DNA of 6,583 nt. Origin: a virus (Duplodnaviria; Heunggongvirae; Uroviricota; Caudoviricetes). Location of the stretch: the IMG/VR virus record IMGVR_UViG_2671180921_000006; one strand, 5' to 3'. A program made the position numbers and the translations under genes. How positions within the stretch are numbered: the first letter of the stretch is position 1; the number at the start of each line of letters is the position of its first letter. Shown in pieces: positions 115 through 6,376 of this stretch. The notes beneath the pieces were generated by a model. It saw nothing but the letters and a program-made list of their open reading frames with translations, did not search any database and was not told the origin of the DNA.

Positions 115-1018
115 TCGCCCTCCTGAGAGACGGGATTTACGTGTATCCAGTGCATCACGCATAACGGTGATCGCATCGGTACTGTTAACAAGTTCATCAG
201 CCAGTCCGGCATCAATGGCCTCCTGACCGCTGTACACTGCAGCCTCGGTATCCAGCACAGCCTGCACGGACAGGCCGGTATATGCCGACACCTTCTGTGC
301 AAACATCCGGCGGGTTGCATCCATCCGGGACTGCAGTGTTTCCCGGACATCATCCGGTAGATGGCTGTAGGGGTTGCCATCCACCTTATGGCTGCCGCTG
401 TAAATCAGCGTGATTTCCACACCCTGTTTCTCCAGCGCAGCACCGTAATTACTGTGAGCCATCATGACGCCGATGGAGCCTGTCCGGGCGGTCTGCGTGA
501 CCAGACGCCGGGAGGCGGCGCTGGCAAGCAGCTGACCTGCACTGCAGTTCATGTCGTTGGCCAGCGCCCATACCGGCTTTATGTCACGCACACGGGCGAT
601 GATGTCAGCACAGTCAAATGCTCCCGCCACCATCCCGCCCGGTGTGTCCATATCGAGCAGAATGCCGTCCACCATCGGATCGCTGGCAGCCTGTTGCAGA
701 CGGGCGATAATGCCGTTGTAACCGGTCATCCCCGAATACGGCTGCAGCGCCCGCGTCCGGCTGACCAGCGTGCCGGACACCGGCAGCACGGCGATGCCGT
801 TCATGACCTGATAACTGCGGGCCTGTCGTGGCCCGCCATCATCACCGGATAACGCCAGCGTCGCGGGTGCCTCTCCGGCAGTCAGGCTGTCGCCGGACAC
901 CGCATCCGTCAGGCGGCTGATCCCAAGCTGGCCTGCAAGCGCACAAAAGAAAACCCGCGCATAGGCGGGTTCAAGCATCAGCGGCTCATTAAAGGCCATA
1001 CTGGCAATATGCGGGAGA

Positions 1019-1038
<20 letters not shown>
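1..1038 (-). CDS. C: Prohead (capsid maturation) protease gpC, S49/ClpP-like family; partial, the 3' end lies beyond the window start
   Basis: Minus-strand frame opens with GTG at 1038-1036 (phage sense GTGACAGCAGAGCTGCGT = V/M-T-A-E-L-R...) and stays open to position 1, where it includes the in-frame codons at 324 and 114. The start overlaps the end of the portal gene by 20 nt. The translation matches my memory of lambda gpC; the ORF track omits it only because it runs off the window edge. Confidence 0.85.
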
Positions 1039-4719
<3,681 letters not shown>

Positions 4720-4745
<26 letters not shown>

Positions 4746-5265
4746 TCAGCAACCCCGGTATCAGTTCATCCAGCGCGGCTGCTTTGTTCATGGCTTTGAT
4801 GATATCCCGTTTCAGGAAATCAACATGTCGGTTTTCCAGTTCCGGAAAACGCCGCTGCACCGACAGGGGGATCCCGTCGAGAATACTGGCAATTTCACCT
4901 GCGATCCGCGACAGCACGAAAGTACAGAATGCGGTTTCCACCACTTCAGCGGAGTCTCTGGCATTCTTCAGCTCCTGTGCGTCGGCCTGCGCACGCGTAA
5001 GTCGATGGCGTTCGTACTCAATAGTCCCTGGCTGGAGATCTGCCTCGCTGGCCTGCCGCAGTTCTTCAACTTCCCGGCGCAGCTTTTCGTTCTCAATTTC
5101 AGCATCCCTTTCGGCATACCATTTTATGACGGCGGCAGAGTCATAAAGCACCTCATTACCCTTCCCACCGCCTCGCAGAACGGGCATTCCCTGCTCCTGC
5201 CAGTTCTGAATGGTACGGATACTCGCACCGAAAATGTCAGCCAGCTGCTTTTTGTTGACTTCCAT
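4720..5265 (-). CDS. nu1: Terminase small subunit gpNu1 (181 aa), cosB-binding winged-HTH protein
   Basis: ORF MEVNKKQLADIFGASIRTIQNWQEQGMPVLRGGGKGNEVLYDSAAVIKWYAERDAEIENEKLRREVEELRQ... recognised as lambda gpNu1. ATG at 5265-5263 sits immediately downstream (phage sense) of cosB. Confidence 0.95.
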
Positions 5266-5287
5266 TGTTCATTCCACGGACAAAAAC

Positions 5288-5303
5288 AGAGAAAGGAAAC
5301 GAC
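5288..5303 (-). promoter_or_regulatory. cosB R1 element
   Basis: Plus strand agagaaaggaaacgac; phage sense GTCGTTTCCTTTCTCT. Confidence 0.75.
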
Positions 5304-5330
5304 AAAGGCCAAAAAGCCCGTTTTCAGCAT

Positions 5331-5348
5331 CTGTCGTTTCCTTTCTTT
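5331..5348 (-). promoter_or_regulatory. cosB R2 element (inverted relative to R1/R3)
   Basis: Plus strand ctgtcgtttcctttcttt; phage sense AAAGAAAGGAAACGACAG. Confidence 0.75.
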
Positions 5349-5384
5349 TCAGGGGGTGTTTTAAATAAAAACATGAAGTTACAG

Positions 5385-5404
5385 CGAAGAAGAACGGAAA
5401 CGCC
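5385..5404 (-). promoter_or_regulatory. cosB R3 element
   Basis: Plus strand cgaagaagaacggaaacgcc; phage sense GGCGTTTCCGTTCTTCTTCG. Confidence 0.75.
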
Positions 5405-5436
5405 TTAAACCGGAAAATTTTCATAAATAGCGAAAA

Positions 5437-5460
5437 CCCGCGCGCCTTCCGCCCCGTAAC
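5437..5460 (-). other. cosN (terminase nicking site); cohesive-end 12-mer equivalent at 5443-5454, divergent from canonical lambda
   Basis: Phage-sense sequence is GTTACG-GGGCGGAAGGCG-CGCGGGTTTTCGC. Canonical lambda, as I recall it, is GTTACG-GGGCGGCGACCT-CGCGGGTTTTCGC. The flanks match exactly and six consecutive bases of the 12-mer differ. Confidence 0.65.
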
Positions 5461-5495
5461 GTTCTGGATTGCCGGAAAGGACCCGCCAGCCATTC
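5461..5495 (-). other. Right-end cos flank where cosQ would be expected
   Basis: Phage sense CGGGTCCTTTCCGGCAATCCAGAACGTTACG resembles the lambda right-end terminal sequence (CGGGTCCTTTCCGGTGATCCGACAGGTTACG, from memory) with several substitutions. The exact cosQ element was not pinned down. Confidence 0.35.
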
Positions 5496-5758
5496 GGGTT
5501 TACTTCGCAATGGGATTTAATATCTGAACGACCAAAGTCGTGCGACCACGGTCGCACAGACCTGAATACATGCCCTGTTTCTTCCACCCCCGCACAGGAC
5601 TGGCGAGCATGAGGGACAAACCCGCGAATCATAAACGCGGTAAAAACCCGGTGTGCATCGTTTTTGATTATTCCCGCACACTCGCGCAGAAGGAATTCCC
5701 CGTCGGGCTACGGTCATGGTTAATGCGGAAATACGGCGACGATACAGCGCATGATGTG

Positions 5759-6376
5759 TCAGGCTTGAATACCTTTATCGAATCCCGGTAATAAAAACTG
5801 TCCCTGTCTCTCCAGACGTTCCAGCTTTGCAAGCAATTGAGGTTTTTTCGTTCTCCCCCAGCGATTGAGCAGACGGCCTGACATGCTGGCGACATCCTTC
5901 TCTTTCATGTACTCCAGCATTACGGCGTTACGTTCTGCTTCATAACTTTCGCTGTACTTACGGAGTTCTGCTGACATCCAGTTAAACGCATTGATATAGG
6001 CTTCTTTAACAGCATCGGCTTTTGCCCCGTTAAATCCCATAACCAGCATAACGAAGCCACTAAAGTCCATGCGGTAGTAAATCTGTTTCTTGTCAAAAAT
6101 ACCTAAGTCATTGATTTTCTCGACGGCCCAAAAATGGGTTGTCGAGAATTCCTCAGAACATCTCAAACATTTAATAGCCCTAATCACATGCTGATGGCGT
6201 TTACCAAATGCCCTGGCAATCTGGAAGGTGTCAGTTACCGGTTGACCTTCTGCTGCGGTAACTAACTGGCGAAAGTCGAAGTCATGATTCGCAATTAATT
6301 CATTCATGGCGTTGCCTGCTTCTTTGAAATGAACCTTTGCCGCATAGGAAACCAGCCCACCGAGGCTCGCCAGCAC
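5759..6376 (-). CDS. Rha-family phage regulatory protein (Phage_pRha domain-like), encoded at the distal end of the right arm just upstream of cos
   Basis: 205-aa ORF with a GTG start at 6376; an alternative ATG at 6307-6305 (MNELIANHDFDF...) is possible. The segment FGKRHQHVIRAI...FSGFVMLVMGFNGAKADAVKEAYINAFNWMSAELRK fits the pattern I recall for Rha domains (FGKRHDNVLRDI ... GF.LL.MGF.GKKA...KEAYI.AFN). Same orientation as the packaging genes. Sampled lines of the gene are much more AT-rich than the head genes. Confidence 0.6.
   Translation of the reverse strand: MLASLGGLVSYAAKVHFKEAGNAMNELIANHDFDFRQLVTAAEGQPVTDTFQIARAFGKRHQHVIRAIKCLRCSEEFSTTHFWAVEKINDLGIFDKKQIYYRMDFSGFVMLVMGFNGAKADAVKEAYINAFNWMSAELRKYSESYEAERNAVMLEYMKEKDVASMSGRLLNRWGRTKKPQLLAKLERLERQGQFLLPGFDKGIQA

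Follow-up and report, generated by a model that had tools for sequence, protein, structure and literature searches.

The minus strand of the window (the whole stretch of 6,583 nucleotides analysed here, from the Caudoviricetes record IMGVR_UViG_2671180921_000006 of IMG/VR) carries at positions 5265-5490 a complete lambda-type cos in the order cosQ, cosN, I2 and cosB (R3-I1-R2-R1), directly upstream of Nu1-A-W-B genes whose proteins are ~99% identical to those of lambda. Comparison with lambda and with related loci indicates that this cos is very probably a natural lambda-type allele, with cosB differences that represent standing polymorphisms at weakly constrained spacer positions, and that it most likely has the packaging specificity of lambda and would function near-normally. 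It is a known system and an ordinary natural allele, and the observation originally made in the first-pass annotation is correct but unremarkable. The only mildly new item is a widespread allele of the cohesive end that differs from that of lambda at five positions.

Local alignment of the minus strand of the window to lambda (NC_001416, with the right end of lambda joined to its left end) shows that the window covers, in reverse-complement orientation, the left end of a lambda-like prophage. Homology extends from lambda 48472 (cosQ) through Nu1, A and W and into B, to the end of the lambda segment that was aligned, and identity is 98.2% over lambda 138-3000 and ~90% over the cos segment. The coding changes relative to lambda are mostly synonymous, such that 23/435 four-fold sites (5.3%) differ as compared with 4/1780 positions at codon positions 1 and 2. 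The sole change in gpNu1 (Table 1) leaves the winged-helix DNA-binding domain identical to that of lambda, and the recognition helix (residues 17-24, E24) and wing (K35) named in PMC9026076 are those of a TerS cognate to lambda cos. Because the mapped contacts within cos are intact and the terminase is that of lambda, lambda packaging specificity and 12-base GGGCGGAAGGCG ends are most likely for this element.

Relative to the lambda cos (NC_001416 bp 48473-48502 joined to 1-190), the order of cosQ, cosN, I2, R3, I1, inverted R2 and R1 and their spacing are the same, with no change in R3 or R2 and 99% identity of the terminase subunits; what differs is 10 changes in cosB, bp 7, 8, 9, 10 and 12 of the cohesive end, the spacer between cosQ and cosN, and the region upstream of cosQ. 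In that upstream region the window is unrelated to the lambda right end and carries a gene for a Rha-like regulator at 5759-6376. A perfect 8-bp inverted repeat (GTGCGACC-AC-GGTCGCAC, window 5540-5557) lies between the Rha-like gene and cosQ and is present, with changes, in the right end of phage 2B8. An Rfam scan of the whole window returned no family above its threshold.

Table 1 Genes and cos elements located in the window.
Feature	Window position	Strand	Lambda position	Remarks
B	1019-2620	(-)		Intact
W	2617-2823	(-)		Intact
A, terminase large subunit (nuclease and ATPase)	2820-4745	(-)		637/641 residues identical to lambda gpA
Nu1, terminase small subunit reading the R sites	4720-5265	(-)		180/181 residues identical to lambda gpNu1 (L132I)
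R1, accessory gpNu1 site	5290-5305	(-)	151-166	TTGTCGTTTCCTTTCT; 15/16 relative to lambda, C151T at outer edge
R2, gpNu1 site, inverted relative to R3 and R1	5331-5346	(+)	109-124	16/16 relative to lambda
I1, predicted IHF site and intrinsic bend	5365-5390	(-)	65-90	Differs from lambda at 71, 72, 73 and 80
Likely 13-bp IHF core	5369-5381	bottom strand	74-86	AAACATGAAGTTA; consensus scan
R3, critical gpNu1 binding site	5390-5405	(-)	50-65	AGGCGTTTCCGTTCTT; 16/16 relative to lambda
I2 segment, cosN to R3	5405-5437	(-)	18-50	Identical to lambda; cosN-to-R3 spacing kept
cosN, cohesive end and flanking CG	5441-5456; 12-base GGGCGGAAGGCG at 5454-5443	(-)		Located by alignment to lambda
cosQ, packaging-termination signal	5478-5484	(-)	48473-48479	GGGTCCT; located by alignment

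The distance from cosQ to the first base of the cohesive end is 23 bp as in lambda, and it is kept by a spacer whose sequence is unrelated to that of lambda. A copy resembling R4 (phage sense TGGCGGGTCCTTTC) overlaps cosQ at window 5475-5488, and an R4 box is annotated at the corresponding position in a phage 21 record. Among 94 unique cos sequences, cosQ itself is nearly invariant.

The interval 5285-5405 addressed in the first-pass annotation corresponds to lambda bp 50-171, i.e. cosB, and the claim made there, that the cores of R3, R2 and R1 are lambda-like with R2 inverted, is borne out by alignment. Across the 6583 bp of the window there are exactly three copies of the R core CGTTTCCNTTCT, at 5391-5402(-) in R3, 5335-5346(+) in R2 and 5290-5301(-) in R1; 200 shuffles produced 0 copies. 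All three R sequences are lambda-type (CGTTTCC type), and their positions and orientations are those of lambda. Previous work placed R3 at bp 50-65, with bp 56, 58 and 59 critical and NMR contacts at bp 55-63 (Murialdo and Feiss, PMC9026076). In the window the contact zone at 55-63, critical base pairs included, and the distance from cosN to R3 are unchanged, and lambda bp 13-70 are matched at 100% identity with no indel. The I2 segment, which falls within this stretch, has been reported to be essential and conserved (PMC4856287). R2 and R1 have an identical 16-mer in common (PMC9026076), which we located in lambda at the coordinates listed for them in Table 1, and the role of R1 is accessory (PMC4669245). 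Since R1 is bounded here by that 16-mer identity, C151T counts as an R1 change; it lies outside the R1 equivalent of the NMR contact zone, and lambda bp 152-190 are again identical in the window.

The differences quoted earlier for the spacers are likewise real. The two pairs of sequences given, CGCTGTAACTTCATG against lambda 69-83 CGTCATAACTTAATG and GATGCTGAAAACGGGC against lambda 124-140 GGTGCTGAAAGCGAGGC, are exact on alignment, and the pairwise comparison with lambda that had been proposed as a check finds the R cores unaltered, C151T being at the edge of the 16-bp R1. The complete set of cosB differences from lambda comprises positions 71, 72, 73, 80, 97, 102, 125, 134, a 1-bp length difference at 137/138, and 151; of these, T97C, T102C and C151T had been absent from the earlier account.

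By analogy with the lambda literature, gpNu1 dimers would dock on R3 and the inverted R2 across an I1 bend sharpened by IHF, and the docked gpNu1 would anchor gpA such that cosN is nicked 12 bp apart. R1 would be accessory to this arrangement, I2 would contribute spacing and a static bend, and cosQ would be used at termination, when the next cos is cut.

How are the differences in cosB to be read? A search with an exact 26-mer at the Nu1 start retrieved 120 IMG/VR stretches, from which, together with lambda and the window, 118 sequences were extracted, 94 of them unique. Several alleles of the window are frequent among these 94 sequences, namely 73G (69/94), 102C (64/94), 134A (59/94), 137G (32/94), 97C (30/94), 71C (25/94) and 151T (14/94), while 72T (3/94), 125A (3/94) and 80C (2/94) make up the remainder. 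At positions 73, 102 and 134 it is lambda that holds the minority state. Moreover, the G of lambda at bp 138 (GCGAGGC) is absent from 93/93 other unique lambda-type cos sequences, so the apparent deletion in the window is an insertion specific to lambda. A conserved hairpin between R2 and R1 (GAGGC-TTTTTG-GCCTC in lambda) was considered and rejected on the same account; its perfect stem needs the unique G138 and is not kept elsewhere. A terminator-like match between R2 and R1 was also set aside, as it is within chance expectation.

All cosB alleles of the window except 72T are shared with many other loci. The alleles 80C, 125A and 151T are linked in a sub-lineage found at about a dozen further IMG/VR loci, and a second linked haplotype joins 71C, 97C and 137G with the variant cosN. 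Lambda is itself atypical at several spacer positions of cosB, so a difference from lambda does not by itself mean that the other sequence has changed. The earlier reading of the spacer differences as substitutions of this particular sequence does not hold up for this reason; they are mostly common polymorphisms for which lambda often has the minority state. Lambda-type cosB is also found on two records of 46.7 and 47.6 kb from E. coli assemblies (NZ_CP165740.1 and NZ_CP145143.1), which probably represent circular phage genomes that were assembled as replicons outside the chromosome.

A close relative in cosB is phage 2B8 (Lambda_2B8, NC_049952), with 98.1% identity across a 213-bp stretch that begins at lambda bp 13, spans cosB and reaches into Nu1. 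It shares 71C, 73G, 80C, 97C, 102C, 134A, 137G and 151T with the window and has a similar Rha-like right arm; it differs in carrying 72C, 125G, 145G and 176G, and its cohesive end, read across the joined ends of the record, is GGGCGGTGACCT, lambda-like with C7T. In the study from which the name Lambda_2B8 derives, the temperate phages that were sequenced had been purified from plaques and amplified on indicator strains (PMC6969025).

The first-pass annotation had further proposed that the pattern reflects selection on the gpNu1 binding sites. From the window and lambda by themselves, conservation of the R cores beyond chance can hardly be claimed; the 48 R positions out of 117 contain at most 1 of 10 differences (p=0.034, or 0.088 if 71-73 are counted as one event), and at the 5.3% divergence of four-fold sites the R elements should hold only ~2.5 differences in any case. 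What is notable in this pair is the high divergence of the spacers, which differ from lambda at 9/69 positions (13%) as against 5.3% at four-fold sites. The population data are more informative. For the 73 unique sequences that cover cos together with an intact Nu1, nucleotide diversity (π) is 0.049 at four-fold sites of Nu1 and 0.010 at its codon positions 1 and 2, and the value of 0.005 in the R contact zones is ten times below that of the four-fold sites. Similarly low values are obtained for the I1 core (0.008, scored as 79-91), cosN 1-6 (0.009) and I2 (bp 13-49, 0.014), and higher ones for the R3-R2 spacer (0.058), the R2-R1 spacer (0.074) and cosN 7-12 (0.146). Counts of polymorphic sites give the same picture: 1/27 in the R contact zones (Fisher p=0.002) and 4/48 in the R 16-mers (p=0.001) as compared with 28/84 at Nu1 four-fold sites, while the 16/69 observed in spacers are indistinguishable from the four-fold sites (p=0.21); most spacer positions are invariant. 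These p-values are approximate, as the sequences are related and recombining.

Within the 94 unique sequences, R3 is essentially invariant over positions 55-65, with a single sequence departing at 56, positions 53 and 54 are polymorphic, and R2 is invariant but for A118G in 4/94. Rare R-core variants seen in IMG/VR haplotypes are this A118G in R2, and G156A (TGTCATTTCC) and C155T (TTGTTGTTTCC) in R1; these may be decaying copies or variants tolerated in accessory sites. Judged from the diversity data, purifying selection acts on the gpNu1 contact zones, on the I1 core and I2, and on the left half of cosN, and the spacers look near-neutral. Selection on the gpNu1 sites, as first proposed, is thus upheld once the population data are added, while the notion that it is particular to the R sites is not, as I2, the I1 core and cosN 1-6 are equally constrained.

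A possible but rather unlikely alternative is that the pattern arose by mosaic recombination and not by selection, with bp 71-151 derived from a deeper cosB haplotype than the flanks. The excess of spacer divergence over that of four-fold sites would be explained in this way, and both the linkage of variants in the two haplotypes described above and the shuffling of cosN alleles among three types of cosB (see below) are in keeping with it. However, the R contact zones, the I1 core and I2 are depleted of polymorphic sites across the 73 to 94 unique sequences and in both haplotype classes, which recombination by itself cannot explain. The two processes are compatible, and both probably contribute.

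A separate claim was that the substitutions in I1 may alter the dependence of packaging on IHF. The I1 segment corresponds to bp 65-90 in work of the Feiss laboratory (PMC4856287), and a scan with the IHF consensus WATCAANNNNTTR gives two possible bottom-strand registers in lambda I1, one at 86-74 with 2 mismatches and one at 91-79 (AATAAAAACATTA) with 1 mismatch. The choice between them matters for A80C, the only change in the I1 core. In the register 79-91 it turns the conserved TT of TTR into TG; at the site predicted in the register 74-86 it falls in the unspecified NNNN, and the IHF-site scoring that had been suggested as a check gives 11/13 for both the window and lambda. We favor the register 74-86, since the GenBank records of phage 21 place I1 at cos bp 72-86 (M81255) and 75-85 (X02501), the best consensus match of 21-type cos (1 mismatch) lies exactly at 74-86, the register sits within the bp 65-90 segment, and polymorphic sites 78 and 80 are both N positions in it. 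The register 79-91 is judged less likely on the first, second and last of these grounds.

It follows from the other register that I1 substitutions, above all A80C, could weaken IHF binding and make packaging less IHF-dependent or less efficient than in lambda. This appears very unlikely. The better single-mismatch score of 91-79, the strong conservation of positions 79-91 and the rarity of 80C in a sample that was not selected by cosN would speak for it. Against it stand the phage 21 evidence, by which A80C changes an unspecified base, the other polymorphic site of the core at 78, which is also an N, and the T/A tracts at 84-96, which are unchanged; furthermore, 80C is carried by the plaque-forming phage 2B8 as well as by the ~12 further IMG/VR loci, and even total loss of IHF lowers the yield of lambda only to ~30% (PMC4856287). 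Altered IHF dependence is therefore not supported.

A further departure from lambda lies just outside the range covered by the first-pass annotation. The cohesive end is GGGCGGAAGGCG as compared with GGGCGGCGACCT in lambda, and cosN reads CG|GGGCGGAAGGCG|CG, such that bases 1-6 and both CG flanks, at the predicted nick sites, are identical to lambda. Previous work reported that mutations in bp 7-12 of cosN are tolerated and that natural variation occurs there, with conserved CG flanks (Feiss et al. 2015, PMC4669245), and explained this tolerance by gpNu1 at R3 anchoring gpA for bottom-strand nicking (PMC4669245). Natural variants have been described at 9 and 12 in both N15 and phiD326 and at 8, 9 and 11 in Gifsy-1 (PMC4669245). 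Variation in the window is likewise confined to the right half, with the left half and CG flanks conserved; in contrast to those phages, which have 2 or 3 differences from lambda and their own TerS and cosB, the window has changes at 5/6 of these positions with an essentially lambda terminase. The variant end fits the published rule for bp 7-12 but goes further, in that 5/6 changes exceed anything tested experimentally (2 for N15, 3 for Gifsy-1).

This allele is not confined to the window. In the IMG/VR sample not selected by cosN it accounts for ~8% of loci, and it was found in 82 IMG/VR stretches, in at most 196/5426 complete E. coli genomes and in one species-representative genome, Escherichia sp. 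E1V33. A 50-mer starting at cohesive-end base 1 also found it in the phage records PhiR46_1 (PV340565) and YDC107_1 (CP025712), the status of the PhiR phages as propagated phages being taken from the record host field only; a 40-mer that included the cosQ-cosN spacer of the window, too narrow a query, matched no phage. Both records combine the GGGCGGAAGGCG end with a lambda-type cosB and intact Nu1 and A. They differ from the window in the cosQ-cosN spacer, in the right arm and, within cosB, at 70T, 72C, 80A, 125G, 151C and the stretch 136-141 (AACAGGCCTTTT against AACGGGCTTTTT). The variant cosN stands behind many different right arms. Co-adaptation of gpA to it was considered and rejected, as no residue is specific to carriers and I459V is also present at 22/43 loci with lambda-type cosN. 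No mention of GGGCGGAAGGCG in a phage context was found in the literature searched.

Only 6.6 kb of the prophage are visible, and the prophage as a whole may be defective. Could cos then be a decaying site that is no longer used, its substitutions, with the five cohesive-end changes among them, being neutral drift? We consider this highly unlikely. The exact cosB haplotype, with 72T, is unique, being found in 0 species-representative genomes and having no full-length identical copy in complete E. coli genomes (best match 2 mismatches in 121 bp). One genome with the same cos allele and Nu1 start, E. coli M18 (NZ_CP010219 970171-988210), contains only a prophage remnant that has lost the head genes and most of the tail genes, with cos joined directly to a lom-like gene from ~170 bp past cosN. 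Among the loci with the variant cosN that have coverage of the gene, Nu1 is broken in 2/50 but intact in 48/50, and A is intact in 33/35. In the window itself Nu1, A, W and B are intact with overwhelmingly synonymous changes, and every functionally mapped position is unchanged (cosQ, cosN 1-6, the CG flanks, I2 and the R contact zones), whereas decay would not spare precisely the mapped contacts. The wide sharing of every allele but 72T, with 80C and 151T present in the isolated phage 2B8, argues in the same direction.

The variant end is also joined to cosB of other types. At 18 loci it adjoins a cosB of the phage 21 type (L131, 12069-12420, and 17 similar), where variant end and I2 precede R boxes of the CATGTCGG type in a sequence ~86% identical to M81255. 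The cos of phage 21 (M81255, X02501) has nearly the same coordinates as that of the window (R3 50-65, I1 72-86, R2 107-122, R1 150-165) and shares the I2 segment, but its R sequences differ, and the recognition helix of its TerS differs such that packaging specificity is different (PMC4669245). Assignment of the window itself to the 21 type was rejected, its CGTTTCC-type R boxes being unrelated to those of L131 and M81255. The occurrence of the variant end on 21-type cosB indicates that cosN alleles are shuffled between packaging-specificity types. A third type of cosB follows the variant end at 5 loci (L133, 2060-6254, with cos at 4113-4140, and 4 similar). These are flanked by genes for an E-like capsid protein, a D-like decoration protein and an AlpA-like protein. 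Next come a Nu1-like protein, matched by Pfam from profile position 34 onward, and an Abi_C abortive-infection-like gene; no large-terminase gene was found among the adjacent ORFs tested. On its gene content this locus looks like a phage satellite with its own cos.

Taken as a whole, the population data confirm a picture already established by lambda genetics, in which constraint acts on the gpNu1 contacts, the I1 core, I2 and the left half of cosN, and both the spacer positions and bp 7-12 of cosN can vary freely. A cohesive end with five changes, common in Escherichia prophages alongside a lambda-identical terminase, extends the known tolerance of cosN. It seems quite unlikely, if conceivable, that GGGCGGAAGGCG, rather than being a neutral curiosity, represents a second class of cohesive end among lambda-like elements that had not been described before. 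If this were true, GGGCGGAAGGCG and lambda-class ends should not anneal to each other, and carriers of the allele could form a compatibility group, with end-joining or co-packaging restricted between co-resident lambdoid phages and satellites; it would also provide natural evidence for almost sequence-independent bottom-strand nicking by gpA.
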